Source of the DNA: an uncultured Clostridia bacterium | GTDB taxonomy: Bacteria > Bacillota > Clostridia > Christensenellales > UBA1242 | Direction: 5' to 3' | NCBI GenBank assembly: GCA_947629505.1 | Contig: CANRDW010000001.1 | Location: 7,750-71,749, forward strand | Length of the DNA: 64,000 nt | Part shown: positions 8,467-55,900 of the stretch, in pieces | Position numbering within the stretch: position 1 is the stretch's first letter | Layout: the number at the start of each line of letters is the position of its first letter | The notes under the pieces: model-generated | What the model saw: the letters and a program-made list of their open reading frames with translations, nothing else | Database searches by the model: none | Told to the model about the DNA's origin: nothing | Made by a program: the position numbers and the translations under genes

Positions 8467-8494
8467 TTGAATTATTTTTTCTTTGTGCTAAAAT
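8467..8494 (+). promoter_or_regulatory. promoter of the 2,848-aa surface protein gene
   Basis: TTGAAT (8467-8472), 16-nt spacer, TGcTAAAAT (hexamer 8489-8494). AAAGGAG RBS at 8507-8513. Confidence 0.5.
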
Positions 8495-8520
8495 ATATTC
8501 ATAATAAAGGAGTGAAATCT

Positions 8521-17119: not shown

Positions 17120-20100
17120 TTATTTCTTTTTCAACTCTTTGTCAAGTTTAACTTTAGAAACAATGAAGTAGATGATTACACCTGCAAGCACAACAACTGA
17201 GATAACAATCAAAATTGTTCCAACAACTTGATATGTCATAACAGGATCTTGTGCTCTTGCTGTGAATGTGACTGAAACAGAGTTGTTTGTGCCTTTGTTT
17301 CCAACATCGTCATAGGCTTCCAAAATAATTCTGTATGTGCCAACTTCTGTGATGTTGTAAACACGATAATCGCCATCTTCATCATATTCAAGTTCGTTGT
17401 TTGAAGAGTCAACAACTTTAATTGTGATTTCCTTGTTTGTCATTTCATAGTTGTCAGTAACATCCAAGGCTTTTGTGTTGATTCTAAGTTGTTCACCAAG
17501 TGTGTAAGAACGGCTTTCTTTAACAAATCCACTCTTAACGATGATGACAGGGTTTTCGTTATCTCCGACTGTGATTGTTTTTGTCCAAGTATCTCTATTT
17601 CCGGCCATGTCTTCAACTTTGTATGTGATTTTGATTGTTCCGTTTGTTTTTGTTGGATCATCGCCAAATTTAGATTGATCAATAACTTTGTCAGTTCTTC
17701 CTGTCAATTGTTCTGTGAAACCTGCAACGTTGTTGCTGTTTTTAACAGGTGACCATTCAAAGTCGATTCCTGTGTTTTCGCTTTCCCAATTGATTTCTTC
17801 GTTGGCCTCAATTCCATAAACTGTGAAACCATGTTCTTCGTTTAATTTATTAGCAAACTGTTCTTTTGTCAAAGAATCGTCATAATCATGATGTGTGATG
17901 ACAGGTTTAACTGTGTCAACAACTTCGATTCTGTAAACATCGCTTTGACGAACATAGACTTTAAGTCCCTCAAAAATGTCTTCAGTTACACTATCAGATT
18001 TCGCAAAAGATGATACTTTGCCATCCTTATATGTTACAACTTTTCCATCTTCAAGTTTAAATACATAATAAGATTTAGTTTCTGTATCGTAATATTTAAG
18101 TTCGCCCTCATTTTCAGCATAGAAATAACCTGAAAGATCTGTGTTATCTTTTAATGTGAAGTAGTTTTTGTCTTCATATTTTCCGCCTTCAAATGTGCTT
18201 TCATTGAATGTGAACATTGTTGGCTTGTAAATGCGAATTTTAACTGTGTATTGAAGGTCATAGATGCCAACTTCTTTTGGCTCAAACAAGCCTTTAACAC
18301 CAAAGTTTGTTTCCCAGCCCATGTCTGATGCTGTTCCGTCTGGCTCAACGCCCATTACAACGTATGCTGCGCCTTTTGCATCGTCTTCATTCTTCTTAAA
18401 TTCTGTGTAAGTGATGCTGTTTGGGATTTGATAGTAAACTGTAGGTGTTGGAAGTTCAATTCTTGGATTGTCATTAAGTTGATATGTTCCACTTGTAAGG
18501 GATGCAGAAATTTGTGGTTGTTGAATCAAAATTCTTGGTTCAACTTTATACTCTTTGAAGTAAGTGATAACATTGTCTGCGCTGTCACGAGCTGTGATTG
18601 CAATCTTGTAAGTTCCGTCAGCAGAAGCAGTGAATTTTCCAGCATGGATTGTGTAAACACCAGAGCCATCATAGTTTGTCTGTCTGCTTGAATAAGAATC
18701 AGCAACATCGATTGCATATTCTTTGCTGTCTTTGTCAACACGAGTTGCTTTAACTTCATATGTCATATAGCCAACTGAATCATCTGCAACTTTAAGTGTA
18801 GGCAATACAATTTCAGCGCCTTGATAGATTGTTTCTTCTGTCATGTTGTTTTCAACTGACAAGAAAATTGGAGCACTTGAATCTTTTGTTGTGTAGATGT
18901 TTGTCTGCATTGCTGCCATTGTTGGATTTCCGGCATCATCATATGTGAATGCAACAATTTGCAATTTTTCAGCGCCCTCTGGAGCTTCTGAAAGTTTGAT
19001 TGAATAAGATGATACGCTTGTGTCTGTGAGTTCTTTATATCCATCAAATTTTTTGCTGTAATCTTTAACTGTTCCATCTGTAAGTTCATAGTCGTGATAT
19101 TCTTCATAAAGGTCTGCCAAGTTTGTGCCACTGTCTGCCACATATTTATCTCTTAAATCTTTATAAAGTTCGTCAAGGTCAACATAACCTTTTTCTTCGT
19201 TTGCGCCATCTTCAAATTCAATGAGGTTGCCCTTTCCATCAAGATATCTGTATAAAACTCTCTTATACATGTTGCTGTCGCTTGTATCTGTTGCTGATGG
19301 AGCATCAAATGTGATTGTTGCTTCTGGAAGATAAGAAGCGGCAAGTTGTGTTGAGAATTTAAGTGTTGGAGCAGCGCTGTCTGTGGTTGATGTGATATAG
19401 ATTGGTCTTGAAATATCTCTGTCATTTCCAGACTTGTCGATTGCCACATAGTGAACAAAGTATTGTCCAACGCCTTGTCCTGTTGTGAGTCCGTTGTCTG
19501 TGGTTGCGCCAAAGGTTTTGTCATAGTCAATGTATGCAAAGCCAAGTTTTGTGAGATCTTCTTCAGATTTTGCTTGAAGCCATGCTTTCAAATCTTCTGG
19601 TGTGAGTGTATCGCCTGTCTTAGCGCCTTCAAAGGTTGCTTCGCCAAACAAGTCGATTATGTTTTGAAGATTTCCATTGTCAATCACAACAAGATAGTTG
19701 TTTTCTTTAAGCCAACCGAATTTCTTTTCAACAGAGTCAAGTGTTGCTTCTGGATTTGCGGAATTATATTTGTCAACTGCTTTAGAAATCAAATAATTCT
19801 TGTCAAGCATTGCCTCCCATGCATCATCAAAAGTTTTTGCACTGTTTTCTCCAGAGAAATTGAAGATAAGGTTGTATGCATCATAGCCATCGATTGTGAA
19901 AAGGTCTGTAAGGCTTGTTGCAATTCTTCTGTTTAAAACAACTCCATTTTCTTGGTTGTTGTCGTCAATTGTTGAAACATTGTCGTCAATTCCGATGGCG
20001 TAAACAACAACTGCGTTTGGATTTGCGTTTGTTTTGAGTTTGTAGGTCGCATCTTCGTAAGTTGGTTTTTTGTCTGCGTCCACAACAGATGCATCATAGA

Positions 20101-21463
20101 TGACAGGTGTTGGGTTTGTTTCATCAACTATATTTGAAATTGCATATGTTCCGTCTGTGGATTCATTTTCATTGCCATAGATGTCTTTAATGTTGTAGTT
20201 GAATGTGTACCATCCATCTTGAAGTGGCTTGAATTTTGAAGGGTCTTTCAAATAGCCGTTTTCGTCAACAACATCTGCATAGATTTTAACACCATCAACT
20301 TCGATGTCTTTGATGTCTTCATATGCTCTGTTGCTGCTTGATGACATATATCTAACTTTAACTCTGTAATAAACATCAACTGCTTCGTTTGCAGGAGTTG
20401 TTGTTGAACTTGTAAGCCCTTTTGCTTCTGGAAGAGTGATTTCAACGCCTGTTTGTGCAGATGTTGGGAAATTTGAAACTTGAATTACAGGTTTTTTGTA
20501 GTTTTCATAATAACCCTTTCTTTCATCATTTTTTGCATAAACGTTGATTTCTTTTGTTGTGGATGTCACAAAGTTTCCATTGTCATAGAAAGCATATCTG
20601 ATTGTATATTTCCCAGATGCGGTGTTTTCAGAAGTGAAAACTGTTGATGCAATTTTGTATTGTGTTTTTGTTTCATCACCATCAACAGGTGTGATATCAA
20701 CATCTTCTGATTTGCTGTCAATGGCTGTGATTTGAAGCACATATCCACTGCTTTTTGCTGGTTTTGTCTTCTCAGTTGAAACTGTGATTTTTTTGCCGTT
20801 TTCTTCGTTGTAAACTTCGCCATCCTCACCTGTGATTTCAGGGATTGGAAGAAGAACATCATTTGGGTCACCAACGTTAAGGTCAATTATGCTTGGAATG
20901 AATGCTGGTGTGTTGTTTTTGAAATCGATTGTGGCATTTGAAAGTGTGCTTTCAATCTTGAATTCAAATTTGTTTTCATACTGTTTTGGTGTTCCAGATA
21001 AAACTGAAGTAACTTCTTGATATGTGTATGAATATGTGATCACATATGTTCCAACTTTTTCAACTTCCAAAACGCCATCTTGAAGTTTAACACCATCTGT
21101 GTTTTCGGCAGAGCCATATCCAACAGTCACACTTGTTGATACAATCTTAACTTTTGATTCATCGGTTGGATGTTCAAGTTCTGTGTCGTTAACATCTGCA
21201 GAGCCAATGGCAAGACTTGTGCTGCCGCCAATATATGCTGTTGGAATGGTGTATTGTTCACCCTTCTTGACAGAAGTAGTTTTGTTTGCGTCAGCAAGTT
21301 TTAAAGTAATGTAGTTGTAATCAACTTTTGTGCCTTCTGGGAGTGAAACTGCAGCAAGTGCCAAAAGTGCGTCATTTGGCATGCAAATAACTGCAAGCGC
21401 AAAAGCAACTGCAAACACCAATCCTCTTAAAAATATTGAATGATTTTTTCTTTTAAGTTTCAT
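17120..21463 (-). CDS. giant cell-surface protein, 1,447 aa (signal peptide, tandem Ig-like modules, C-terminal TM anchor)
   Basis: RBS TAGGAGA. Signal peptide MKLKRKNHSIFLRGLVFAVAFALAV.... At least six D-x-(A/S)GN ... P-x-I module ends (KDIYGNENES, AIDKSGNDRD, TYDDAGNPTM, ARDSADNVITY, VEDMAGNRDTW, AYDDVGNKGT), typical of HYR/bacterial Ig-like surface domains. C-terminal GTILIVISVVVLAGVIIYFIV plus SKVKLDKELKKK. Confidence 0.85.
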   Translation of the reverse strand: MKLKRKNHSIFLRGLVFAVAFALAVICMPNDALLALAAVSLPEGTKVDYNYITLKLADANKTTSVKKGEQYTIPTAYIGGSTSLAIGSADVNDTELEHPTDESKVKIVSTSVTVGYGSAENTDGVKLQDGVLEVEKVGTYVITYSYTYQEVTSVLSGTPKQYENKFEFKIESTLSNATIDFKNNTPAFIPSIIDLNVGDPNDVLLPIPEITGEDGEVYNEENGKKITVSTEKTKPAKSSGYVLQITAIDSKSEDVDITPVDGDETKTQYKIASTVFTSENTASGKYTIRYAFYDNGNFVTSTTKEINVYAKNDERKGYYENYKKPVIQVSNFPTSAQTGVEITLPEAKGLTSSTTTPANEAVDVYYRVKVRYMSSSSNRAYEDIKDIEVDGVKIYADVVDENGYLKDPSKFKPLQDGWYTFNYNIKDIYGNENESTDGTYAISNIVDETNPTPVIYDASVVDADKKPTYEDATYKLKTNANPNAVVVYAIGIDDNVSTIDDNNQENGVVLNRRIATSLTDLFTIDGYDAYNLIFNFSGENSAKTFDDAWEAMLDKNYLISKAVDKYNSANPEATLDSVEKKFGWLKENNYLVVIDNGNLQNIIDLFGEATFEGAKTGDTLTPEDLKAWLQAKSEEDLTKLGFAYIDYDKTFGATTDNGLTTGQGVGQYFVHYVAIDKSGNDRDISRPIYITSTTDSAAPTLKFSTQLAASYLPEATITFDAPSATDTSDSNMYKRVLYRYLDGKGNLIEFEDGANEEKGYVDLDELYKDLRDKYVADSGTNLADLYEEYHDYELTDGTVKDYSKKFDGYKELTDTSVSSYSIKLSEAPEGAEKLQIVAFTYDDAGNPTMAAMQTNIYTTKDSSAPIFLSVENNMTEETIYQGAEIVLPTLKVADDSVGYMTYEVKATRVDKDSKEYAIDVADSYSSRQTNYDGSGVYTIHAGKFTASADGTYKIAITARDSADNVITYFKEYKVEPRILIQQPQISASLTSGTYQLNDNPRIELPTPTVYYQIPNSITYTEFKKNEDDAKGAAYVVMGVEPDGTASDMGWETNFGVKGLFEPKEVGIYDLQYTVKIRIYKPTMFTFNESTFEGGKYEDKNYFTLKDNTDLSGYFYAENEGELKYYDTETKSYYVFKLEDGKVVTYKDGKVSSFAKSDSVTEDIFEGLKVYVRQSDVYRIEVVDTVKPVITHHDYDDSLTKEQFANKLNEEHGFTVYGIEANEEINWESENTGIDFEWSPVKNSNNVAGFTEQLTGRTDKVIDQSKFGDDPTKTNGTIKITYKVEDMAGNRDTWTKTITVGDNENPVIIVKSGFVKESRSYTLGEQLRINTKALDVTDNYEMTNKEITIKVVDSSNNELEYDEDGDYRVYNITEVGTYRIILEAYDDVGNKGTNNSVSVTFTARAQDPVMTYQVVGTILIVISVVVLAGVIIYFIVSKVKLDKELKKK

Positions 21464-35422: not shown

Positions 35423-35928
35423 TTGATGTTTACATTTTGCCGATTTTGTTTATTTTGATTTTCATCTATTGCCTTTTCAAGAAAATTAACACCTATGACA
35501 CCTTTGTCAAAGGTGCAAAGGGTGCAATCAAACTTGTGGTGGAAATTTTTCCATATATTGCAACAATTTTGATTGCCACAACACTTTTGCGCGTGAGCGG
35601 AATCACAACCTTTCTCACACAAATTCTCTCACCCGTATTCACCGCACTTGGCGTGCCATCCGAACTTGTGGAATTGGTGCTACTTCGCCCGTTCACGGGC
35701 AGCGGGAGTTATGGGATTTTGGAAAACATTTTCACGCAGTATGGGGCGGACAGTTACATCAGCCGTTGCGCGTGCGTGATTATGGGCTGCAGTGAAACAA
35801 TTTTCTATGTCGCAACCGTGTATATAAGTCAAACAAAAGTTAAAAAACTGTTGTATGCCATCCCCGTGGCGCTCGTTTGCAGTTTTGTGGGCACAATTGT
35901 GGCGTGCCTGCTGTGTAAAATCATGTAA
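35419..35928 (+). CDS. spmB: spore maturation protein B
   Basis: 169 aa membrane protein. ATGA overlap with spmA. RPFTGSGSYGIL motif. Confidence 0.8.
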   Translation: MIDVYILPILFILIFIYCLFKKINTYDTFVKGAKGAIKLVVEIFPYIATILIATTLLRVSGITTFLTQILSPVFTALGVPSELVELVLLRPFTGSGSYGILENIFTQYGADSYISRCACVIMGCSETIFYVATVYISQTKVKKLLYAIPVALVCSFVGTIVACLLCKIM

Positions 35929-35946
35929 AAATTTTAAAAACACCCC

Positions 35947-35975
35947 TTGACAAAGGTTTTTTTTAGATATAAAAT
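35947..35975 (+). promoter_or_regulatory. promoter with leaderless geometry for the ankyrin gene
   Basis: TTGACA (35947-35952), 17 nt, TAAAAT (35970-35975), 6 nt (atttat), ATG 35982. No SD. Confidence 0.5.
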
Positions 35976-35981
35976 ATTTAT

Positions 35982-36311
35982 ATGGAAAAAGGAATCACCA
36001 CTGTAAAGAAAACCAAAAAACCAAACGCTTGCAGGTTTTTGTTTGCTTGTATGTTGGGTGAATGCGCCAAAATTGCGGACTATATTGAGTTGGGCGGAGA
36101 TATCAATGTCACATCCACAGTCACAAAAAAATCTGGGCTTATCTACGCTTTGGAAAACAAAAAATACACCGCCGCTTCACTTTTGATACATTGCGGAATT
36201 GATTTGACATTAAAGGACAAGAAAAACAAAACGGCAATGGATTATGCAGACGATGTTTTTAAAGAACTCATGCAACAAGAAGTGGCATACAGAAATAAAG
36301 TAAAAGGCTGA
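35982..36311 (+). CDS. ankyrin-repeat protein (109 aa, two ANK repeats)
   Basis: LFACMLGECAKIADYIELGGDINV and SGLIYALENKKYTAASLLIHCGIDLTLKDKKNKTAMDYA fit the ANK consensus. Confidence 0.75.
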   Translation: MEKGITTVKKTKKPNACRFLFACMLGECAKIADYIELGGDINVTSTVTKKSGLIYALENKKYTAASLLIHCGIDLTLKDKKNKTAMDYADDVFKELMQQEVAYRNKVKG

Positions 36312-36330
36312 AATTTCAGTCTTTTTTTTA
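36306..36330 (+). terminator. rho-independent terminator
   Basis: GGCTGAAATTTCAGTC then T8. Overlaps the stop codon. Confidence 0.7.
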
Positions 36331-36361
36331 TCACACTTTTTTAATATTTTTTAAAAACCAC

Positions 36362-36390
36362 TTGACAATTACCCCCCCCCGTGTTATGAT
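36362..36390 (+). promoter_or_regulatory. consensus promoter of the WG-like repeat gene with a C9 tract in the spacer
   Basis: TTGACA (36362-36367), 17-nt spacer attaCCCCCCCCCgtgt, TGtTATGAT (hexamer 36385-36390). AAGGGGGA RBS. ATG 36414. Confidence 0.55.
36372..36380 (+). repeat. C9 homopolymer
   Basis: Read directly. It is the only long C/G homopolymer I saw in the window. Confidence 0.95.
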
Positions 36391-36413
36391 AAGGGTAATT
36401 AAGGGGGAATATT

Positions 36414-37631
36414 ATGGAAGAAGATATTTTTGAGCCTGTAAAACTTGCTGACGGCAAATGGACCTTTAAAAACACAAATACAGGCAAACTTTGCGAACAA
36501 AGATTTGATAAGGTTGAATATGTTAATGAAGGCTTTGCCGCCGTTAAAATCAAAGGCAAATGGACATTTTTCAAACCTTCAACTGGAGAACTTTGTAAAC
36601 AAGAATTTGATGCTGTTAGAGATATTCATGGTGGATTTGCAGCAGTTAGAATCGGCAAAAAATGGACATTTTTCAAGCCTTCAACTGGAGAACTTTGTAA
36701 AGAAAAATTTTATGATATTAATGTTAAAACAAATGGCCTTCCAGTGGTTAAAATCGGCAAAAAATGGGCTTTTTACAATCCTTCAACTGGAGAACTTTGT
36801 AAAGAAAAATTTGATGAGTTTTATGAGTTTATAGAGGCTCCTAATAACTATGCATTAGTTAGAATCGGCAAAAAATGGACTTTTTGCAATCAACATACTG
36901 GAATACTTTGTGAACAAAAATTTGATGAGTTTGGAGGTACTTCTGGTCAATTTGCAGCAGTTAGAATCGGCAAAAAATGGACTTATTATAAAGCATCAAC
37001 TGAGAAACTTTGTGAACAAGAATTTGATGAGGTTAGAAATTTTGATGGTCAATTTGCAGCTGTTAGAATCGGCAAAAAATGGACTTATTACAATCCAACA
37101 TCGAATCGATGTTGTAAAGAATACTTTGATGATGCTCTTGATGTGAATGACAGTTGGTTTGTTCCTGTTAGAATAGGGAACAAATGGACATACTTTGATC
37201 TTCGCAATGACGTTGTTTTGCCAACATCTATAAAAATGACAAAAAACGACAATGGTAGTTATGTTGATTTATACTTTTGGTTAAGAAGACATCCGGAAGA
37301 TTTTGAACAACTCCCAACTGAATTATTCGCTGAAGACAAAAAAGAAGTTGAAAAATGTTTAAAAGAAATTGCCAATGGAATTAAACGTGATTTATGCTCA
37401 GAAAAAGGTTCTTTAGAAGAAGTTGAAGAATACACAAAACAAGTTTATGATATGATTTCAAATAAAATTGAAAAAGAGAAACAAAATATTGCAATCAAAG
37501 AACAACAAATAGCTGCCTATCAGGCAAAGCGCAAGGCTGAAAAAGCCGAACATGAAGCCGAACGTTTCAAAAAAGCTGAAATCGTTGACAAAGCAGCAAA
37601 AATTATCAAAGACTTGGGAGGAAAGTTGTGA
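36414..37631 (+). CDS. WG/KWG-like beta-propeller repeat protein with C-terminal coiled-coil
   Basis: Eight copies of a ~33-aa unit: (I)GKKWTF(F/Y)xPSTGELCxxxFDxVxxxxGxFAAVR. The C-terminal ~110 aa are K/E-rich and helical. Confidence 0.8.
   Translation: MEEDIFEPVKLADGKWTFKNTNTGKLCEQRFDKVEYVNEGFAAVKIKGKWTFFKPSTGELCKQEFDAVRDIHGGFAAVRIGKKWTFFKPSTGELCKEKFYDINVKTNGLPVVKIGKKWAFYNPSTGELCKEKFDEFYEFIEAPNNYALVRIGKKWTFCNQHTGILCEQKFDEFGGTSGQFAAVRIGKKWTYYKASTEKLCEQEFDEVRNFDGQFAAVRIGKKWTYYNPTSNRCCKEYFDDALDVNDSWFVPVRIGNKWTYFDLRNDVVLPTSIKMTKNDNGSYVDLYFWLRRHPEDFEQLPTELFAEDKKEVEKCLKEIANGIKRDLCSEKGSLEEVEEYTKQVYDMISNKIEKEKQNIAIKEQQIAAYQAKRKAEKAEHEAERFKKAEIVDKAAKIIKDLGGKL
36540..37200 (+). repeat. tandem ~99-105-bp coding repeats inside the WG-like gene
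   Basis: Near-identical blocks such as gttagaatcggcaaaaaatggac recur at about 36648, 36858, 36958 and 37058 (a variant gttaaaatcggcaaaaaatgggc at about 36751), and ccttcaactggagaactttgtaaa recurs three times. Confidence 0.85.
37522..37545 (+). repeat. left copy of a 24-bp perfect inverted repeat
   Basis: aggcaaagcgcaaggctgaaaaag, encoding (Q)AKRKAEK in the WG-like gene. Confidence 0.95.
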
Positions 37632-37711
37632 TGACAAAAAAAGAATTTGATAAATGGGTTGATGAAATGTTTGAGTTGCTTAAAGAACAACTTAAAGACA
37701 TAAAAGATTAA
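37631..37711 (+). CDS. possible translationally coupled 26-aa ORF
   Basis: TGATG overlap with the WG-like stop. GGGAGGA lies 9-10 nt upstream. MTKKEFDKWVDEMFELLKEQLKDIKD. Confidence 0.25.
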   Translation: MTKKEFDKWVDEMFELLKEQLKDIKD

Positions 37712-37727
37712 AACATGTGAGAAAAAA

Positions 37728-37760
37728 TAAAAGGCTGAATTTTCAGTCTTTTATTTTTCT
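37728..37760. terminator. bidirectional rho-independent terminator
   Basis: AAGGCTGAAttttCAGTCTT flanked by A and T runs. Serves the WG-like gene (+) and the 38-aa ORF (-). Confidence 0.65.
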
Positions 37761-37867
37761 CTTTCTTTTTGTTGTTTTGTTTGCGCTTGTTCTTTTTCAG
37801 CCTTGCGCTTTGCCTCTTCGGCAGCCTTTTGTTGTTTCATGGCTTGAATATACACTTTGTGATTCAT
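37751..37867 (-). CDS. small K/E/Q-rich protein (38 aa), below the track cutoff
   Basis: MNHKVYIQAMKQQKAAEEAKRKAEKEQAQTKQQKEREK. AGGAGAGAG RBS, consensus promoter and terminator. Confidence 0.5.
   Translation of the reverse strand: MNHKVYIQAMKQQKAAEEAKRKAEKEQAQTKQQKEREK
37792..37815 (-). repeat. right copy of the 24-bp perfect inverted repeat
   Basis: The reverse complement is identical to 37522-37545. It encodes (E)AKRKAEK in the 38-aa ORF, in the same frame relative to the repeat. Confidence 0.95.
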
Positions 37868-37887
37868 ATTTCTCTCTCCTTTTAAAA

Positions 37888-37916
37888 ATTATATCAAAGA
37901 AAAAATTGATTGTCAA
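37888..37916 (-). promoter_or_regulatory. perfect-consensus promoter for the 38-aa ORF
   Basis: TTGACA (37916-37911), 17 nt, TATAAT (37893-37888). Confidence 0.55.
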
Positions 37917-38660
37917 TCACACAAAATATTTTGTGTGCAGAACTTCAAGATAATCCCCGTTTTCATTATTTGTGACAAGGTTTGGATGAATCTTCACTTC
38001 TTCCTTTGCGTCTTTCACTGCCTTTAAAAACACAGTTTGCACTTTGCCTTTGCCGTTTTCAGTGAAGAACATCTCTTTGACAGCGAGTTTGACCTTTGAC
38101 AAATTCACAACAAGTTCACACGCGCGGCTTGCAGGATAACAAACATAAAACGCTCCGCCGCTTTTCAGCATTTTTGCAGCGCACTGACAAAGTTTATCGC
38201 ACGGAAGCAAAACTTCTTCTTTTGCAATCTTTTTCACTTCGCTCTGTTTAAAATTTGTCACTTTAAAATAAGGTGGATTTGAAAACACAACATCGGCTTT
38301 TTCGACATATTTTGCAAAATTTTTAACATCGTCACAAACAATTTCAATCTTGTCTTTCAAAGAATTTAGATTTATGTTTTTTTGCAAAAGTTCTGCCATG
38401 GGCTTTTGGATTTCAAATGTGACAATCTTTTTGAGTTTATTTTTGGCTTGCACCAAGATTGAAATCACTCCACATCCGCCGCCAATCTCAACGCACAAAT
38501 CATCTTTTTTTGTTTTGACAAAATTTGCCAACACAACGCTGTCCGAAGTGAAAGTATAAAGGTCTGCATTTTGGATTATTTTAAGATTTTTACACTGCAA
38601 ATCTTCAATTCTTTCATTTTTTTCTAAAAAAACATCGTTTTTTTGCAAATTTTCTCTCAT
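37917..38660 (-). CDS. N6-adenine methyltransferase, YabB / tRNA1(Val) m6A37 TrmN6-like
   Basis: VEIGGGCGVISI (SAM motif) and VVFSNPPYF (NPPY motif). Bacillus-type synteny holB-yaaT-(yabA)-yabB. Confidence 0.8.
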   Translation of the reverse strand: MRENLQKNDVFLEKNERIEDLQCKNLKIIQNADLYTFTSDSVVLANFVKTKKDDLCVEIGGGCGVISILVQAKNKLKKIVTFEIQKPMAELLQKNINLNSLKDKIEIVCDDVKNFAKYVEKADVVFSNPPYFKVTNFKQSEVKKIAKEEVLLPCDKLCQCAAKMLKSGGAFYVCYPASRACELVVNLSKVKLAVKEMFFTENGKGKVQTVFLKAVKDAKEEVKIHPNLVTNNENGDYLEVLHTKYFV

Positions 38661-43930: not shown

Positions 43931-46900
43931 TTATCTCTTTGAGAGTTCTTCTCTGCGCTTTTTCTTGTTGTGATTTACAACCATCAAAATCACAAGCAGT
44001 AAAACAATTCCAACCACGATGCCCACGATGAGATATACATACCAAAGAGATGTTTCACTTAAAATGATGCGTGCGTTTGCCGTCAAATTTCCAAACAAGC
44101 CGTCATTGTAAATTGGTGAATAGTCCGTCCTTGAAAGTTGAATGTTTTTGATTGTGTGATTGTTGAAGTTGAATTGTCCACCAAAACTGTTTTCAGCAGT
44201 TCCAATCGGCGTCCAGAATTTGTCTGCAAGGTCGAGGTCTGCCGTCAGCACATAACAAGCATCTTTATATCTTGCGCCACTTTCGTTGACTGCGCCAGAA
44301 TTTACAAGTTGCATCATTCGAGCAAGTTGTGAAAGATTTGAGATTTGATATGGATTTTTGATTGTGCCCTCGCCATCAAATATGACATCCAAAAGCACAT
44401 CGTCTTCCCACATAATTCTTGAATATTCAACAGTGAGTGAAATTGTGCCAATAATTGGCTCAACTTTGCTGTCACGATATTCTTTGCTGATCTCTATTCT
44501 TCCATTGTGATAAATCTCATCGATATCACTATAGACAAGTCCATAATTTTCAATAATAATGTTTGAAATCTTGTATTTTTGATTGAGTTGTGCCAAAATC
44601 ACAAGGTCTGCATCTCTGTCAACAGTCAAAACGCCAATCATTCCACCATTTACAGTTGTAAGTCTGCCCGCTGAAAGAACGCTGTTCAGGTCAATTGCGT
44701 TGTCAATAATCTGGTCATCTGCAAACTTTTCAGTGATGTAAACTGACAATATCTCATCGCGGAATGTCGGCAAAATTTGCAAAGTATCGTCACCTGCAAT
44801 ATTTCCAGAGAGCATCAAAGTGAAATAATATCTTTGATTTTCAAAGTGGTCTAAGGTCATGTTTGCTGGATTTTCCCAAACGACTGCAAAGCCACGCTCC
44901 ACATTCAAAACAAACTCAACTTTGTCACCTACATGCGCCCTGAATGTTGTCACATCTTTCACAAATTCACCAACATTGTTGTAATGTCCAAGTGAATAAG
45001 AAGTTTTAACATCATTCTTTGGCGTCACGTTGATTTGAATGATCTGCCCAAATCTTGCCTGATATTCGCTGAAATCCAAATCCACAGGCAATCCTTCCAA
45101 AACCATGATGAAAATAACATGTGTTTGGATTTGTTGTGTGATTGTCGCTCTGCCGCTTGTGTAACCTGTGCTCATGTTTGTCCAACTGATAAACTGATAA
45201 CCCTCAACCGCTTCGGCAGTCAGTGTGAATTGTTTTGACGTGTCAACATAAAATTTATTCAACAAAACAAGTGCTTGCGAGTTGCTGTCTTGCTGAGTGA
45301 TGCTTGCATTTGCTTCACCGCCGATAATTCTGATGTCAACTTGTGCAAAGTAAACAATTTGCACTTCGCATTCAACAAAGTTGTCAAGTTGATTGGTTGA
45401 CCATGGGGTGCGTTCGCTGTAAGAATATGCTGGGGCAAACCAATCGCCACCTGCAGGACGCTGATTGATTACAAAACGATAGAATGCAAAACCTGCAATT
45501 TCTGGTGCGTTGAAATAGATGTTTGTTCCAAAAGAAACTTCCATGTAAAGTGGCTGAGATGAATAATACCAAGAATTATACACATCCACGCCCGTGACGA
45601 TATCTTGTGCTGTGATGTTTGTTTGAATGTCAGGGATGATTGAGAATCTTATTCTTGTTTTAAGATAGCTCATGTAAAGATAAAGTGAAATTTCAACTTC
45701 TCCCGTCACTTCGTTGAAATGAGCGTTTGCACTTCTTTCATAAACTTTTGTCTGTTGATTGAAAGAATAGCCACTTTCTTGCCATGTCAAAAGCAAATTG
45801 CCGTCTGAGTCAAAATATCTCACTCCTGCACCTTTTGGCTGTGTGAAATAGCCCTCAAAGTTGAAGCCACTGCGTCTGACAATAATGTTGAGTTTTCCGC
45901 CAACAACAGAAAGTCCGTCCTCTTCAAGTTGGATGTCGCTGAGTTTTGTAAGGTCGATTATTCCTCCAAATTCCACATTTTTGATGGTTGCAAGCAAAGT
46001 TCCGCCGTCACTTTCCACTGTGCTTCCATCACGCAATTTAACTGTGTATGTTGAAGAATTTAACACAATTCTGATTTGTTGTGCGTGCAAGAATTTTGAC
46101 ACGTTGAAAGTCAACATTCCTGTGAAGCCAGATTCAAGAATTTGTGCTTCTGTAAATCTTGTGTAAGTTGCGCCCTCTTCAACAATGCCATTTTCATCTA
46201 CAATAACCAAATTTGAAGCATCATTTACATAATATCCAAGTTTAATGTAAGCTCGAACGACAAATCTGCTGTCTGTGAGTGCATAGACATTGACACGAGG
46301 CTCTCCATTGCCTGAGGTTGAAATCATGGAGTCATCCAAATCACTTGCGCCGGTCACTTCAAAGATTCCGCCCTCAACAACATTGCCTTTATCCTCAAAG
46401 GAGAGTTCAACCAAGTTCACGATAGGCTTAAACACAACATATAAATTTATTCTCTTGTCAATCGCCCCAACAAAGTTTGAAATTTGATAGATGGATGCAT
46501 CATTATTTGACTGTGTGATCATCACGCCATTTTCTGAGCAAACAATTCTGTCAAAAACATAGCCATCGCGCTGAACGACAACACGAATATAAACAAAATC
46601 GCCTGTGTAAGCAACAATTGAGAAATTGTGATAGTCAATCGCACCGTTGTTTTGATAGTGTGTTCGTGAGCCCTCGATGTAGCCATTTGCTTTAACTTCT
46701 TCGCCATTTTCACCAACAAGTTGTGCCATGCCAACGGTGTCATTGTTTTCACGGTTTGAATTTATGCTTATTTGAGTTTGAACATCAAATGTCACGCTGT
46801 AAGCAGAAACAACAAAGTAAATCTTAAACACGCCCTCACCGATGTTTTGAGTTGTGATGTTCACTTCAACAGTTCTTTCATTTCTTGCATCTTGGCTTAT

Positions 46901-49900
46901 ATACACAAAATTGTCATCCGTGCCATAATAGCCATAGCCAGCATAAACAAACCCTTGTGGAACATTGAACAACACAACTGCATTTGCTCCAAAATATATC
47001 TGAACATCTTGCAACTGTCTGCCGTCAATGTCAGTGTAAGTGCCGGCGGAAAGTCCGCGAAGTTCTGTGTAAATTGTTTGCATCTGCGAGCCAACTGAAA
47101 CATCGCTTCTGCTTAATGTTCCAAGAGAGAACATGTATTGTGATGCAGAGAAGATTGCATAGATTGTTTCATCTCTTTCAACTGTGTAGGCAAGTTGTTT
47201 GAGGTTGCTGAAAATTTCAATCCCGTCATGTGACCAGCCTGCAAAATAATAATTTGCCGCTTCAGTGTATGTGAATGTGACTGTGTTGTGATAGTCAGTG
47301 CTCACAGGCTCTGTGCCACCATCCACATAGGCAATGTTCCCATCAACAAAGACACGATCGTGATTGTTGTCCCAAGTGATGACTTCTGCTGAAATTGTGA
47401 ATTTTGCAGTTGTAGAGAAGATTGTCACCGTCCCGCTTTGGTTGATGTCTGAAAGGGTGATTTTATAAACGCCGTCTTCATAAAGCCCGCTGTCATCAAG
47501 CATTTCAGAATGTGTAAACTCGTCACTTTCCACGCTGCTGAAAGTGTAGCCATATTCAAATGTGACAAAGAATATAAAACTTTCACCTGTCACAACTTGG
47601 AATGGCTGCAAACTTTGAAGTGCTGAATAGGTTGTGCCACCAACAATGATGTTTTTGATTTGTGAAATTGTGTTGAAAGCAATTGTAACATCGTTTAGAC
47701 TGCGCTTTGTTGTAACATTGATTTCAATATCACTGTTTATGCTTTCAATTTCAATGACAAGTTGTTTTTCAACTAAACTTACAGATTTTGTGACGCCCTC
47801 AACAGAAATTGTTATGTCACTTTCAAATTCATAGCCTTTCTCTGCTGTGAGTGTGATTGTGAAGCGATTGTCTGTTGGAACATAGAACACATTTGCTGTC
47901 ACATCAATATCTTCACTTATGGTTGTGTTGTAAGCCTCAACAAGTGCGATGTTGTCGCCGTTTATTGTAACTCTGTTTGAGATTGGAATGATTGGAAGAG
48001 TGTATTCATAAACATCGCCTTCATAATTTGGCATTGTGAATGTTATGTTTGCGTTGGTGTTTGTGGCATCATCTGCAAACACAACTTCAAAATCTTCCGC
48101 CCATGTGGTTGAAAGCATATAGCCCGCCTCTGCTGACACTCTGAATGTGATTTTTTCGGCATATTCAACATTATCTGCTTGATATGTGTTTGTTCCGTCA
48201 AATTCAAAACTGTGAGAAGCGTCTTCCAATTCTGCATTTTCAACAACAAATTTGATTGTATATGTGTTAACTTCCCATTGCGCTGTCAGTGTGTGTGCTT
48301 CGGTGACAACGTTTTTATCTTCATCTATTAAAACGCCATCTTTATGCCAGCCTGCAAATTTAAAGCCATCACGTTTTGGATTTTTGTATGTATTCCAATC
48401 CTCACTTGAACTGTATGAAAGCCCATATTCCACAACGATTGTCACATTTTCAACATTATCATGGTTGAAGTTAAGTGTGACATTGATTTTTTGTCTTTCA
48501 AACGTTGGAACAAGAGTTATGGATGTGGACTGATTGTCTTCCTTGACAAGTTCACTTAAAAATTCGTCTGCCAAAGCAACATCATCACAGGTGTAACCCG
48601 TGTGCTGATAGCCTGTGCGCACTATATTTGGAAGAGAACTTGCTGCAAAGGTCTGCAAAGTGATGTAATCTGTATTCCATGTGTAAATCTTATCGTTTTC
48701 GTCATCCACAAAGGTTGAAGAAGAAAGTTCTGCATTGTCAAAGCCCACAAGAGAGATGTTGACTGCAACTTTTTGCACTGAAAATCTCACTTGCATTTGT
48801 GTATTTTCGGTGATTTTCATTTGAAGTTGCATGTCATATTCGCCGTCAGCATAAGTGATGTTGACGCCCTCAATTTCTTGTGCGTCTTTCCACTGCCCGT
48901 CTGTGAGAATATAGAAGCCAAAATAGAATGCGTGTGGATTTGCCTTTATTTTAACTGTAACGGCTGCGTTGTAACCAAATTCACCTGTGTAGTTGTCAGC
49001 GTCTGCGTTTTCATTGACACTCACAAGCCCAAGTGACAATTCTCGCCCATTTTCATCGGTGACTGTGACATCAAGTTGTGCTGTTGTCGCACTCCAATTA
49101 GGCTGGAAGTCAATTGTAATTTTTTCGTTTGATTTAAAGTAAAATTCTGGGAAATTTTCTGCGTCATTGACAAGCAATCTTATAAATTCCACTGTTTTGC
49201 TGTTGTTTGCAACATGGATTTTGTAAAGCCCCTCTGCCTCATTTGAACGCTCATCCAAAATAAGCCCTGCACTTGCAATCATCTCTTTCAGTTTGTCAAC
49301 TTTTGTTTGATTATCCACAATTTTAAAATCTATTGTCCAATAGTCAAAATCAAAGCCAGGATTGTCATAGAGCATGGTTGGGAAACTCCCCACCTTCGTT
49401 TTTTCGTCCATGGAATTGGATACAAGATTGTTTTGAGAAATAAATGGGAAGCCTATGCTTTTAAGTTGTGGCAAGCCATTTCGTTCTACATTTGAAACGA
49501 TAGGTTTTTCATAATTGAAGTGAATGTCGATTTCAATTGGATTGATTGCGCCATAGTCATAGTCCTCAAGCACATAGTTGTCTTTATCTTCACCTTTAAG
49601 GGTGAATTTCACTTTCTTTGGATTTCCAACTTTTGCATCTTCAAACGCCGCACTTAAAACTTGGACATCATCAAGTTGCAATCCGCCAGAAATGTTGAAG
49701 TTTGCCGCTCCGTCTGTGAATGCACCTTTGACATCCGCCGTTTCATCATAGGTTTTGACGAACATCTCATCAAAACTTGTGGTTGTTTCAACAAGTTGCA
49801 ATTGTTTTGGCTTGATTGTAAGTTTTGCAGAGAATGTGTCACTTTCAGCATTGTCCACAACATATTTTGTGGCAACAAAATCGGTGGCTCTGAAAGTAAG

Positions 49901-52900
49901 CATAAGGTCATATTGCCCTGCTGGCAAATTTCCAGAAGAACTCATCTCTCCATTATACTTATAATTAAGTCCAAGTTCCCACTGACGATGCTGATCTGTG
50001 TATTTTTTGACATCAAAACCCTCAAAGCCAAGGTCATATTCGATGAAACTGTTTAAATCAAATTCTTCGCCATATGTAAATGAAAGATTGTTGATGTAGA
50101 AGGTCACTTTGGCAAGTGTGATGCTTCCTGTCACAACTCTTTCAACCTTTTCCGCCGGCTCATCATCTGGCATTGCCAAATAATCTGGCAAGAAATAGTT
50201 GTCTTTATTTTCCCCATCCAATGTGATGGCAACTCGATAACCATCTCCAACAAATATTGCAGGATTTGTGCACTCGTCATCTGTAAAGAATCTAACCGTT
50301 GCTGAAACGCCATCTTCCACGGTGAGATTTTGGAAAAGTTCGCTTGCATCGGCATATTCATAAACTGCATCTTGGAAATTAAACGGCTTTTCAATCTTTG
50401 TGGCAAATTCTTCTTTAAGTTGCAGTTCAATTTGTGAAATGGTGAAAGTGAATGCATAACGCGTTCCGTCTTTGCCTAATTTCACATCGTGAGTGGAAGA
50501 AGTTGCACTTAAGGCTTGAATGTAATAATCCCCGCGCTGTTTAATGAGTGGATAACTCAAAAATTGAAGTGTGGCTTGGAAGCCAATTATGTCAAAATCC
50601 TCGTCAACCTTTTTATATTCTCCTCCCTCATAATAGAAAAATCCAAGTTCCTTTTCAAGCGGCGTTGAAAGTCCAGAAGTGTGAGAAATTGTCAGATAAT
50701 ACTCGTCACCTTTTGTCGTCAATTCCACTTTGTTGTATTCAAAGCCGTTGTAACGCTCTTCAAATATTGTTGTGCCATCATCAAAGAGAACAAACACTCT
50801 GTCGCTTTGGCGTGTGATTTGGAATGCACCCCTTGCAGATCTGTCGTTGACGCTTAATGTGTAGTTTGAATCTTGACACTCAAAATCTGTTGAATGGATT
50901 CTGTAAAACCCAATCGAAGAGCCCTCATCACGCTTTAAAATCACCTCAAAAGTTTCCCCAAGTGTGCTTGTCATGGTGTAAGTGTATGTGTCGCCTCGCG
51001 CTGCCGCAGTGCCATAGCCCACACTTATCACGCCGTTGTTTTCAAACACAAGCGATTGTGCAAGCGCTGTCACAGTGATTGTAAATGATGTTTCTTGAAT
51101 GGTGTAATAATCATTCTCCCCGCTTACTTTAATTGTGTATTGCCCCACATCCAAATATTTTTTCAAAGAAGATGTGTATTTTGCATTTTCAATTTCAACA
51201 TCAACAGAATATTGTGTTGATGAAAGCGCCCTGCCACCAGATGTGACACTGAATGGAAATTCATAGGCTGAAATGTTGTTTATTTGCCCATATGTGTATT
51301 CAAGTTTTGAAAGTGTGACGATTGCAGTTGCTTGTCTGATTATTCCGTTTTCAACACTTGATGCTGAAAGTGTGTAATTCTTTTTGTCAACACCATTCAA
51401 ATAAAGGTCGACATGTTTGCCCACATCAATGTTTGGATTGTCAAATCTTGCAAGAATTGAAACATCTTCGCCCGGAATCTTTTCTGTAAATTCTCTGATT
51501 GTCACATCTCTTGAACCGTCATAATCTTTTTGAACATTCAAAGATTCGACGTCAATTACAATTTCTGTGATTTCAAACGCATAACTTTCAGCAAAAATCA
51601 CATTGGCGTAACTGCTGCCTTGTTTACTTATTGAAAGGTTGTATTTGCCAACAGCAAGCATTTCCCCGCTGACGCTTATTGTTATTGTCCCCAAAGATGA
51701 TAGGTCTTCAATTGGTGTTTCATTTTCTCCATCTGCCTTTGCGAAATATTTGACTGTGAAAGTTTTGAAATCTGCGCCATTTTTGCTTAATTTAAGTGTG
51801 GAATTGTCATCCATGCTGAACTGATAACTTTCTTTTGAATAGACAACTTTGAAGTTGTTTGTATTAAATGTGTCAACCCCTTGGTCAACAATTCTTGCAT
51901 AGACAATTTCAGTTGCAATCACAACGCCAAGTGCGCCGTTGTTTTCATTGATTGTAACAACAACGCTGTCATTTAAGAAACTGTCATTTTCAAGTTGCAA
52001 ATCATAATTGCCACTTGAAAGTGTTTCGCCTGCCGCGTGGTCTTTGACAGTGTATTGCAAATTCAACACTTCACCCGTGGAGAGAGTTATTGTGTCACTG
52101 TAACTTGCTGCAACTTGATCCAAGACAGTGATGACAACAAAATTCTTTGGAAGATTTCTTGGAAGTTGCAACACATCCACATCAAAAGTGATTGTGTTGA
52201 CTTGCATGACAAAATCTTGGAATGTGTATTTTGGCGTGAGAGTGTAAGTGCCTTTAAACAAATATCCTTTCTCACTTACAGTTTCTGCATCATGTTGAAT
52301 TTCCAAAGAGTAATAGCCCTCACTGAGCCAACTTGTGACTGTCTTTTCATCCGCAGTTTTGATATCTTTTATCTTCACAAAGTCATTCATTATAAGATTT
52401 GAAACATTTACAATTCCATAAGTGAAATGTGAGGCAACTGTGCTTTCATATTTTTGTGTGTCAATTTCAAGCGTCATTGTGGCGGAAAGTGGCTTCACTT
52501 CCCAATCAGTATAATTTGCGCTGAGTTCATAATTTGTGAGTTTTTCTTCTTCGCCCGCTTGTTTTAAAGTAAGTTCAACTCTCACGCTCGGCCCAGCATG
52601 CACTGAAGAATAGGCCGCCTGAATGTAAAGCCCGCTGTATTCGTTTGGATCTATTGCTTCGCCCGTGAGGCTTATGTTTGCAACATCATCATTGTCAAAA
52701 GTTTTTGTGTAAGTGATTTTTGAAACATCGATCTTTTTTTTGATGATTTGGAACTTATAATCCAAACTAATTTCAACATTTTGATAATAATTTGAAAGAT
52801 TTTCGCCGTTTGAAATTGAATAGTTGTAGGTTTCACAATCTTCCGCCGTTTCAAAAGTTGTGTCAGAGATGATAAAGCGAATTGTTGCATCAAACTTTGT

Positions 52901-55900
52901 TTTCAAAATTGCCAAAACTTTTTCAGAAAGCCCGCCATCATTCAAAACAAGTGTAATCTGATGTTTGACTTCATTTGCCTGTTTAATCTGTAAAACAAAA
53001 TTCTCTTCAACAACCAAGATGTCCACTGTAAAGCCGCCTTTGACATATTCTTCTTCACAAACGGCTGGCTCGCCAGCAATGTATGCAATTTTAAGCGTGT
53101 CGCTCTTTGTGATTGTAAATGTGCCAACAGAATTTGAAAGTGCTTCCGGCTTTATCTCCCCGTCAAAGATGATAACGCCATTTGATTTGAAAATATAGTT
53201 GCCTTTAAATGCTTCGCCTACATCTGCAAGATAAAGCGCGCTGTCGCCAATATCTTCACTTGGGTCGCTTCCGCGTGTGAGCGTGAGTGTTATGTTTTCA
53301 ACAAGTGCGTTTTCACCTCTCACCGCATAATTCATCTCAAGTGATGGGTCGCTTGTGCCAAATGCCTTTGTGCTTGTGAAAGAATTATTTAAATCAACTT
53401 CTCTTTTGTTTATCTCAAATTGGAAAGTTTTTGTGATGCTTTCATCACATTCAAATTTTTTGTCATCAATTAAAAGGTTGATTGTGTAAGTGCCTGCATT
53501 TCTCACCGCTTCCGCTTCATGTCCGTTTAACATTATTTGAAGTGGAATGAAATCCGCATGTGAGATTGAAAGCTGACGCAAAATTTGTTCACTGTAATCC
53601 ACCATATCCCAAACACGATATAAAACAGTGATTGTGATTTCATTGGCGTGATCTCTCGCATCATAAGTGATTGGCTGTGAAGTAAATTCAACGCTGTCAA
53701 TAATATTTTTGATAAACTCAATTGAAAAGTCAACATTGACAGAATATTCTTTTGGCGAATTTATGTCCAAACAAGGATAAAATTCTTCACGCAAAGTTGC
53801 AACTATTTGAAGTTTAAATTTTCCGCCATCTTCAGTGCTTCCGCCATTTTCAAATTCAAGAGTGTTGGTGTCGCTTACTTTTACATAATCTTCGCCAACA
53901 AGTTTTTGCCATACATATGAATATGTAAACATCTCTTCGTTTAAGTTGTAAAGATAAACAACATCGTTGAAAGTCAATGCATCATATGCTCCAACAGGCA
54001 ATTTTTCATTTTCGATGAGTTGGATATAGTCGATTTGTGTGCTTATTGACCACTTGCAAGAGAACACAACTTTTTGATATCTGTTGTCATCTTTAAGCCC
54101 AACAAAGATTCCGTCTTCACTGCGAAACAACATATCTCTGTTCTGGGAAATGTTGTATTCATTTCCGTTTACAATCAAAAACATGCTTGAACATTGCCCC
54201 ACGCCAATTTCATATGGCCAAGTGAGTGAATCATATGTGCTGCTTCCAAGTTTAAGGTTTCCGGTGTCTGAGGTGTTTTCTGTGTAAGTTGAAGGGAAAT
54301 TGAAATTGTATTCCACAAGCACAAGGTCTGTGAATATTGCAAAATAATTCTTTTGTGCAAGTTCGCCCTCTTCTTTCCCTTCTTCAAGTTGAGCGCGTGA
54401 GAAAGAAATAGTGTCGCTGCTTTCCATTGTTCCGTCCACATTGTAAACTTGACTTTCGCTCCACTTGTAAAGGCTGGCATATTCATGCCCTGTCAAACGC
54501 ATTTGTCTTGTTGATACAACAACTTCTGTGACAAATTCGTTTAAATAGATTAAAATTTGATTTGAGTTGTTTCTTTCAATTTGATAGAGTTGCACTCTTT
54601 CGTCAGTTTCTGTTTCGTGCATTCCAATTGTAAAGGCTTCTGGATTGTCAATTGGATTGATTGTGACTATGTCGCCACTGAGTGAATATGAAAGACTTAA
54701 AATGTAAAGTATGTCCTCATCGACATCCATAAAGGTTGTGTTGTTGCTGCTGTCCAGAGTCAAATATTTTGCGTCAACACTTAAACTTGCAACTCCTTCA
54801 ACTGACAAAATTGTAAACAAATCTGTTTTATCAAGCACAATTGTAAAGTTTCTGGAAATGTTCAGTGTGTCGCCATCTCTTGTTGCGATTTGAACACTGT
54901 CAAAGAAGAGATAATTTTTCTTGTCGGCAAAGGTGTATGCCCCAACATCTCTTCCATTTGAATAAAGCCTTGCGCTGATGTATATTCCATCGTAATTGTA
55001 ATAGGTTGTGCCATTGTTTTCATAGGTTTCATAGCCTAAACTGAAGTTCACTTCTCTGTTGGTGTAATATTGTGAGTAATAAACAGAAGGATTTTGAATT
55101 TGATTTTTTAAAGTCAACACTTGTGGCATAACATAGCCGCTTCCAAGCACAAAATACCATCCATCATCACTGTATCTGAGATTGTAGTTTGCTGTGTTGT
55201 CATCTTCTTCAACATACACGCGCACATCATAAAGGGTGTATGGCAAAACATTGTATATCAAAGATTGTAAAACAACTTTTGTTGGTGTGAGATTTGTGTT
55301 TTCTATGCCATTTGCTTTAATTGTGATGCCCGACAAATATTCTTCAAGATTTATGGTTGTTGTTGGATTAAAGTAGTCAAAATAAGTGAAAAGTTTTAAA
55401 CTGTTGAGTCTGGTTGACACTGTTGATTCATGCAACTGTTTATATTCAAGATAATTTGCATAAGTCCATGTTTTGTAGGTGTTGTAATCATTTGCAAGGT
55501 TTGTTGTTGAAAGCAAATAATATTTGATCATAATGTATTCATAAACTTGCATGTCTTCCACATCAACAAAGTTCTCTGCGCCCTCATAGGCTTTGTATTT
55601 TGACACAACTGTCGCCAAATCCTGTCCTTTAACAATCCCCGCTGCTTCCAAATCCACAAAAGGCTCTATGATTTTGACAATGTTTTGTGCGTAGATGTTG
55701 TTGTTTAAACTCTCTTCAGTCAAAATGTTTGCTTGGTCAACTGTGACAGAAAGTGTAAATGAGAATCTTCTGACTTCGCCCAAATTGAAAATTTCGGCTT
55801 GGTCTGTTAAAACAATTTCAAATCTTATCTGATAATCTCCCGCTTCTTGCACAACAAAGAAATCTCTAAATCCTTCTTGCAAATCCCCGTTCAACATAAG

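Follow-up and report, generated by a model that had tools for sequence, protein, structure and literature searches.

What role does an unbroken run of nine cytosines play between the two boxes of a near-consensus promoter, in a genome that is rich in A/T runs and otherwise avoids long runs of G or C? The question is raised by a locus in an uncultured gut Clostridia bacterium, near the middle of the window, by which we mean the whole 64-kb stretch of DNA analysed here. At the sequence level, the C9 tract falls within the -35/-10 spacer of the promoter ahead of a gene for a WG-repeat protein. A sequence-only reading of this DNA had proposed that the tract is a phase-variable switch, in which slipped-strand gain or loss of one C would tune or silence the promoter. 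Here, we consider that proposal in the light of the promoter's anatomy, the rarity of such runs, their recurrence in related genomes and the alternatives.

The promoter and the cassette behind it

The features of the locus are as follows, all on the forward strand except the inverted repeat, for which no strand applies.

36302-36333 (+): intrinsic terminator after the ankyrin-repeat gene (hairpin 36302-36325 plus T run)
36334-36361 (+): A/T-rich UP-like region 5' of the -35 (sequence, direct repeat)
36362-36367 (+): -35 hexamer TTGACA, 6/6 (sequence, script, consensus scan)
36368-36384 (+): spacer ATTA-C9-GTGT, 17 nt (sequence, script, consensus scan)
36372-36380 (+): C9 homopolymer, a candidate slipped-strand mutable tract (a G/C run whose position is kept in homologues and analogues)
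36382-36390 (+): extended -10 TGtTATGAT, with TG at 36382-83 and the hexamer TATGAT (5/6) at 36385-90
36367-36400: 8-bp inverted repeat, AATTACCC (36367-74) / GGGTAATT (36393-400) (sequence)
36401-36407 (+): Shine-Dalgarno (SD) sequence AAGGGGG, 6 nt from the ATG
36414-37631 (+): gene for a 405-aa WG-repeat protein (Pfam PF14903)
37631-37711 (+): 26-aa ORF (MTKKEFDKWVDEMF..., in full MTKKEFDKWVDEMFELLKEQLKDIKD), overlapping the WG stop codon (TGATG) and with its own SD
37723-37758 (+): intrinsic terminator closing the cassette (terminator scan)

The promoter is as the sequence-only reading had described it. Direct inspection, a script and a consensus scan all return TTGACA, 17 nt and TGtTATGAT ahead of the WG gene, and inspection and script agree on nine C's at 36372-36380 among the 17 spacer nucleotides. 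In the consensus scan this promoter scores 11/12 with TG, and it is the sole strong candidate in the 102-nt intergenic gap 5' of the WG ATG (promoter to ATG, ...aaaaaccacTTGACAattaCCCCCCCCCgtgtTATGATaagggtaattaAGGGGGaatattATG). Judging from the position of the -10, the transcription start site (TSS) would lie at about 36397-98, giving a leader of about 17 nt and placing the C tract outside the main mRNA. The UP-like region shares 81% identity with the stretch 5' of the ankyrin promoter (35928-35953), and comparable A/T tracts were found 5' of every related promoter in our promoter comparison.

The predicted terminator at 36302-36333 insulates the WG cassette from upstream transcription, and the cassette thus needs a promoter of its own. 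Within it, the 26-aa ORF is probably co-transcribed and translationally coupled with the WG gene. The same ORF start also follows the closest WG homologue (P0001, 36% identity) in loci L002 and L003, which points to a conserved small partner gene. In addition, a 60-nt imperfect direct repeat (77%) flanks the cassette at 36292-36351 and 37719-37778, and each copy holds a near-identical terminator hairpin (AAAGGCTGAAaTTTCAGTCTTTT). This arrangement hints at insertion or duplication of the cassette at a terminator.

The WG protein matches PF14903 with E = 4.2e-16 and a score of 59 bits (cut-off 25.6). Taken together, Pfam, a family alignment and an AlphaFold model (pLDDT 82), in which beta-hairpins form arrays, indicate about eight WG repeats built as beta-hairpins, together with a long C-terminal helix and a conserved HPEDFxxLPTELF helical domain. 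The N-terminal sequence shows no evident signal peptide, and a PDB fold search returned generic beta-repeat or propeller-like local matches alone (TM 0.2-0.3), which are uninformative as to function. Three relatives among 5.8 billion proteins share the full architecture, at 32-36% identity. A profile protein search gave no further close members, and a profile-guided search of metagenome contigs gave no loci of the family; the WG family with this C-terminal domain therefore has four known members. PADLOC, NCBIfam and PHROGs provided no functional assignment for the WG protein or for the 221-aa protein described below, leaving a role of either in defence systems, which we considered, unsupported by these resources.

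The genes leading up to the cassette are ksgA, tatD, spmA, spmB and the small ankyrin-repeat gene, while the opposite strand holds genes for a TrmN-like methyltransferase, PSP1/YaaT, holB and a P-type ATPase. The order holB-PSP1-methyltransferase-slot-spmB-spmA-tatD-ksgA is conserved. The nearest GTDB genomes are gut MAGs labelled Clostridia, 'Christensenella sp.' and Candidatus Caccovivens (KsgA identity 64-69%). In the window the slot holds the ankyrin and WG genes; the WG gene is absent from the syntenic slot of related MAGs. In L013 and L014 the slot is nearly empty, at 164 and 67 bp, and it contains 1.9 kb in L024 and about 430 bp in L012. A phage region was also considered and dropped, there being no match in the phage collection.

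Two further genes beside the cassette deserve mention. On the minus strand, a 38-aa Lys/Glu/Gln-rich ORF (37751-37867) stands behind a perfect 12/12 promoter with TG (37916-37888) and runs at its 3' end into the WG terminator. The ankyrin-repeat gene (35982-36311) has TTGACA at 35947-52 and TAAAAT at 35970-75, with a T8 run (35957-64) in its 17-nt spacer. The ATG follows this -10 after only 6 nt and an SD is absent, which makes a leaderless mRNA probable.

Rarity of the run and its recurrence in the clade

The C9 tract had been singled out as the only long G/C homopolymer in the 64 kb, and a script bears this out: it is the only C or G run of at least 7 nt in the window, the second longest being G6 at 9928. 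On an iid expectation, 0.03 C runs of at least 9 nt would occur in the window, in which G/C runs of at least 5 nt are depleted (6 observed versus about 27 expected). The window holds six promoter-like sites scoring at least 11/12 on its two strands, and the probability that a 9-nt run would fall wholly inside the spacer of one of these six is about 4e-4. A census of the window and its 16 closest loci (297 kb) gave the following counts, with iid expectations.

G/C runs of at least 5 nt: 65 observed, 126 expected
G/C runs of exactly 7 nt: 0 observed
G/C runs of at least 8 nt: 4 observed, 1.1 expected
G/C runs of at least 9 nt: 3 observed, 0.23 expected

Run lengths in the 297 kb are thus bimodal, with 5-7 nt depleted and 8-9 nt enriched. 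Three of the four long runs sit in promoter spacers, and the remaining one reads GGG-GGG-GGG in frame within an apparent HD-domain gene. Contingency loci usually leave such a pattern, in which short runs are purged and a few long ones persist at regulatory sites. The G9 at 20556-20564 of L012, from a rabbit-gut MAG of the same clade, encodes Gly-Gly-Gly in frame in an apparent HD-domain gene (by its HD motif) and is a candidate for a contingency site of the frameshift type.

Tracts in the equivalent place were also found ahead of WG homologues. The P0001 promoter reads TTGACT-tttg-C9-aatatgc-TATAAT in SRR29273038 and TTGACA-atcg-C8-aatatgc-TATAAT in SRR29273039, and the 1080 bases downstream are identical between these C9 and C8 alleles. 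Their spacers are 19 and 20 nt long, from which it follows that 17 nt is not kept everywhere. The P0003 promoter, TTGACA-aacttt-CCCCTCC-gtgt-TAAAAT, has an interrupted tract at the equivalent position and a 17-nt spacer, and P0002 has an ordinary 17-nt spacer with no tract. Counting from the last base of the -35 hexamer up to the tract, the two P0001 alleles (L002 69-100 with C9, L003 2-32 with C8) also show 4 differences in 10 bases, TTGACTTTTG versus TTGACAATCG. Because the break point lies at the tract, this suggests an exchange of promoter halves or recombination there.

The same kind of promoter precedes genes unrelated to the WG family. In L016, the slot holds an unrelated 221-aa ORF behind TTGACT-t-C8-tgcatgt-TATAAT. 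We gathered relatives of this ORF across public assemblies; the P0047 group comprises an identical protein from 10 samples of a sister species, its gene lying between spmB and the methyltransferase gene behind TTGACT-C8/C9-TGnTATAAT. The promoters of the 221-aa family are as follows.

P0047: ta-C9, 17-nt spacer, 5 samples
P0047: ta-C8, 16-nt spacer, 3 samples
P0047: t-C7TCC, 17-nt spacer, 2 samples
L016 and P0050: t-C8, 16-nt spacer, 3 contigs (L016, L101, L102)
P0049: t-C9, 16-nt spacer, 2 contigs
P0052 (74% identity, other genomic context): TTGACA-act-C9-gtga-TATAAT, 16-nt spacer, 1 contig
P0055 and P0056 (57% and 49% identity): no tract, 17-nt spacer, 3 contigs

A third setting is provided by the related mouse-gut MAG MGBC144555 (L023, 14876-16985), in which TTGACA-tttttc-G9-TAAAAT, with a 15-nt spacer, precedes the gene for a protein of more than 678 aa that has a signal peptide, a Gly-rich region and surface-type sequence repeats. 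Across the clade the tracts vary in length (7+2, 8 or 9), in offset from the -35 (1-4 nt) and in spacer (15-20 nt), whereas TGn precedes the -10 in all promoters that carry a C tract. Homology between the WG and 221-aa proteins was considered and rejected: BLASTP found nothing, and hhalign aligned only HPEDFxxLPTELF with NPDSKEFIPQNLY (E = 0.07, probability <1%). A variable-gap scan for the promoter pattern found no matches in JGI metagenome contigs or GTDB genomes, neither of which includes the species.

It is conceivable, if on balance doubtful, that these promoters represent a portable 'contingency promoter' module (UP, TTGACA, C8-9, RTGn, TATAAT) spread across the clade of Christensenella/Caccovivens-like MAGs and carried with unrelated accessory genes (the WG-repeat family, the 221-aa family and a surface protein). 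Slipped-strand phase variation would then be a general strategy in gut commensal Firmicutes. In such a module, the tract might also mask the SD when present as RNA in read-through transcripts, keeping the OFF state tight.

Other variation was noted around these promoters. About 22 nt 5' of the C tract of the 221-aa promoter, in the UP-like region, a T7/T8 polymorphism runs through L091-L100 and varies independently of the C tract (L100 has T8/C8 and L099 has T7/C9, with one other difference in 773 bp). In L023, a 10-bp inverted repeat, CCGAAAAATG / CATTTTTCGG, overlaps the -35.

Tract length, the proposed switch and its rivals

At the window's own locus, C9 was found in two assemblies (the window and L001), and the species' contigs represent one haplotype; a third, low-coverage contig of the species ends inside the C tract. 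We considered L001 as a second strain, but its five SNPs all lie near the far end of the contig, and it therefore offers no independent test of tract stability. In relatives, tract length differs at homologous and analogous promoters, although variation is just as frequent in intergenic A/T runs. Near-identical haplotypes from four samples of the sister species are all C9, implying that the dominant length is stable and heritable, or held by selection, and not scrambled. In the same alignment, four intergenic A/T homopolymers also vary by 1 nt; the C8/C9 polymorphism is thus proof of mutability, not of exceptional mutability.

With these observations in mind, we lean towards the view that C9 is a slippage-prone spacer switch, of the type known from porA, fetA, opc and vlp, in the promoter that drives the WG cassette. 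On this proposal, which draws on sequence and comparison, a sigma-A-type promoter would be the only one driving a terminator-insulated cassette of two genes, for the WG protein and the 26-aa peptide. C9 would hold the boxes 17 bp apart, the optimal spacing, so that the allele in the window would be the high-expression state. Replication slippage by one C in either direction would change the spacer to 18 or 16 bp and reduce transcription in a heritable and reversible way, and the outcome would be a population of cells that differ in expression level. Both the rate of slippage and its effect on expression are inferred.

The proposal of slippage holds in part. In its favour, the tract exceeds the roughly 8 nt at which a G/C homopolymer can slip, tracts occupy the same position in homologues and in unrelated genes, the spacer moves between 16 and 17 nt with C8, C9 and interrupted alleles, run lengths are bimodal, and one low-coverage contig of the species breaks off within the tract; on the other side stand the single haplotype with C9 alone at the locus itself, and the A/T runs that vary as often. 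As for the suggestion that one C more or less would tune or silence the promoter, graded tuning seems the likelier half and silencing the less likely. With its TGn extended -10, the promoter may tolerate changes in spacer length, and a graded 'volume control' is expected, not a strict on/off switch. The interrupted alleles CCCCTCC (P0003) and C7TCC (P0047) both keep a 17-nt spacer and look like 'locked-on' variants. The cargo is not of the usual kind, as the WG and 221-aa proteins are not typical surface targets of phase variation and their N-terminal sequences contain no evident signal peptide.

The inverted repeat had also been reported before. It exists, and its right arm is at 36393-36400 as given, but the left arm occupies 36367-36374 and so begins one base before the stated 36368-36375. 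The arms are 18 nt apart and bracket the 3' part of the C tract and the -10. It is weak evidence and not clearly significant, since the RNA fold z-score there is just -1.5 to -1.7. The 221-aa family has short inverted repeats of its own round the -10, CTGCAT/ATGCAG and CCGCAT/ATGCGG, related by one symmetric change. A conserved RNA or DNA hairpin round the -10 was considered and found weakly supported (consensus energy -5.6 kcal/mol, little covariation). A known riboswitch or leader was likewise set aside, as no Rfam covariance model matched at the promoter; in 35700-38000, Rfam gave two chance-level matches alone (E > 0.4), both off the element. Nor does the locus resemble an inverton: the arms are 8 bp long and, of the two promoter boxes, enclose the -10 alone, and the neighbouring genes (ankyrin, spmA/B, methyltransferase, PSP1, holB) include no recombinase gene near the C9 promoter.

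The inverted repeats would fit another reading, on which the tract is a fixed cis-regulatory element, perhaps half of an operator for a repressor, or a rigid G:C block whose melting is sensitive to supercoiling or temperature, its length differences being incidental. The AATTACCC / GGGTAATT repeat round the -10, the analogous repeats of the 221-aa family with their symmetric change, the retention of the tract across species and its equal length in near-identical haplotypes could all be read in this way. We regard such an element as unlikely, however, because the repeat arms differ between gene families and P0001 has no repeat, because a tract of variable length, offset and spacer fits a defined binding site poorly, because the genes adjacent to the WG cassette include no regulator gene, and because the fold z-scores and the consensus structure are weak. 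A further suggestion, which could coexist with slippage, is that the C run acts in RNA as an anti-Shine-Dalgarno insulator: in read-through transcripts it would pair with the G-rich SD and block translation, so that expression depends on the gene's own promoter only. In minimum free energy folds the SD is indeed base-paired to the C run, both in the window (GGGGG) and in L005 (GGAGG with CCTCC), one of the window's two G runs of at least 5 nt sits 22 nt after its only long C run, and the lack of a terminator between spmB and the 221-aa genes makes read-through certain there. Yet the TSS would lie 3' of the tract, leaving the main mRNA without it, a terminator precedes the window's promoter, the L023 G tract cannot pair with its SD, and fold z-scores range from -0.1 to -2.7. 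The idea that a GGGGG SD is itself unusual was weakened by GGGG-type SDs at other genes of the window. In the 221-aa family the SD pairs instead with the -35-proximal TTGACTTC, and the 3' end of the tract takes part in the hairpin round the -10. An insulator of this kind appears to us improbable.

The tract may alternatively have no function, as a chance or hitch-hiking homopolymer that arose, for example, as a by-product of cassette insertion between duplicated terminators and was tolerated in the spacer. The 60-nt terminator repeat flanking the cassette and the absence of the WG gene from the syntenic slot of related MAGs are in keeping with such an origin, and no part of a promoter is less constrained than the spacer. 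Recurrence of the tract in at least three unrelated genes and several species tells against this reading, as do the bimodal run lengths and the low joint probability of such a run in such a place, and we give it little credence. Even less can be said for a sequencing or assembly artefact such as a poly-G/C no-signal. Coverage is low in the species' assemblies (2-4x), and one contig stops within the tract, but the tract is internal to the window's source contig (77,379 bp), recurs in an independent assembly from ENA, has a coherent promoter around it and is kept in many sister-species assemblies with coverage up to 28x. The artefact reading is scarcely credible, and is effectively refuted by the independent assemblies.

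Relation to known switches and possible significance

Homopolymer tracts in promoters have well-studied precedents. In Mycoplasma hyorhinis, a low-GC member of the Gram-positive lineage, vlp genes carry a homopolymer in the promoter spacer, and the ON state corresponds to 17 nt. In Bordetella pertussis, the fimbrial genes fim2 and fim3 have a poly-C tract between the upstream activating region and the -10, and its length turns them up or down. Neisseria opc has a promoter tract of the same type as fetA and porA. In these last two, as PMC5320596 describes, poly-C/G lies between the -35 and -10 of fetA (frpB) and porA, its length sets spacing and transcription, and repeat numbers differ by strain. 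The vlp system has been reviewed (PMC10502178), and homopolymer tracts of B. pertussis have been surveyed (PMC1891110).

The likeness to Neisseria opc/porA and Mycoplasma vlp, which had been drawn from the sequence, stands as the best reading on anatomy and comparison. As in Neisseria fetA, opc and porA, several expression levels would be expected here, and not pure on/off. The Neisseria tracts are longer, however (C10-C14, versus 8-9 nt beside a TGn extended -10), and they belong to Gram-negative pathogens with dozens of contingency loci and outer-membrane targets, whereas here a candidate switch is known from sequence in uncultured gut Clostridia, ahead of a WG-repeat protein without an evident signal peptide. 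The vlp tract is poly-A and governs multigene families of surface lipoproteins, whereas the tract here is poly-C in a genome rich in A/T runs and avoiding G/C runs. The fim2/fim3 promoters depend on BvgA and have 13-15 C's; the promoter here has a consensus -35 and no known activator.

In gut commensals, most of what is charted of phase variation concerns invertible promoters and methylation switches. The literature we searched places promoter-tract switches in classical pathogens and yields, for gut commensals, invertons or epigenetic switches only. Invertons of gut commensals generate heritable, reversible heterogeneity in accessory gene expression (PMC11892184). The same outcome is proposed here, but by another mechanism, since invertons need long flanking inverted repeats and a recombinase. 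Spacer switches of the kind we propose are hardly described in this lineage, although the mechanism itself is well known; the gain would therefore be one of scope and host range, not of principle, with the same module standing ahead of unrelated accessory genes in an uncultured gut lineage.

If G/C tracts of this kind do act as switches in uncultured Clostridia, which are abundant, metagenome assemblies would collapse real population heterogeneity at such tracts. Profiling tract lengths in existing reads could then reveal which accessory genes face fluctuating selection in the gut. Both the WG-repeat and the 221-aa protein would be flagged as switch targets, perhaps with roles in phage or host interaction.

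Elsewhere in the window are three very large ORFs, of 6080 aa (43931-62173, minus strand), 2866 aa (8467-17067, plus strand) and 1447 aa (17120-21463, minus strand), which likely encode giant proteins of surface or adhesin type.
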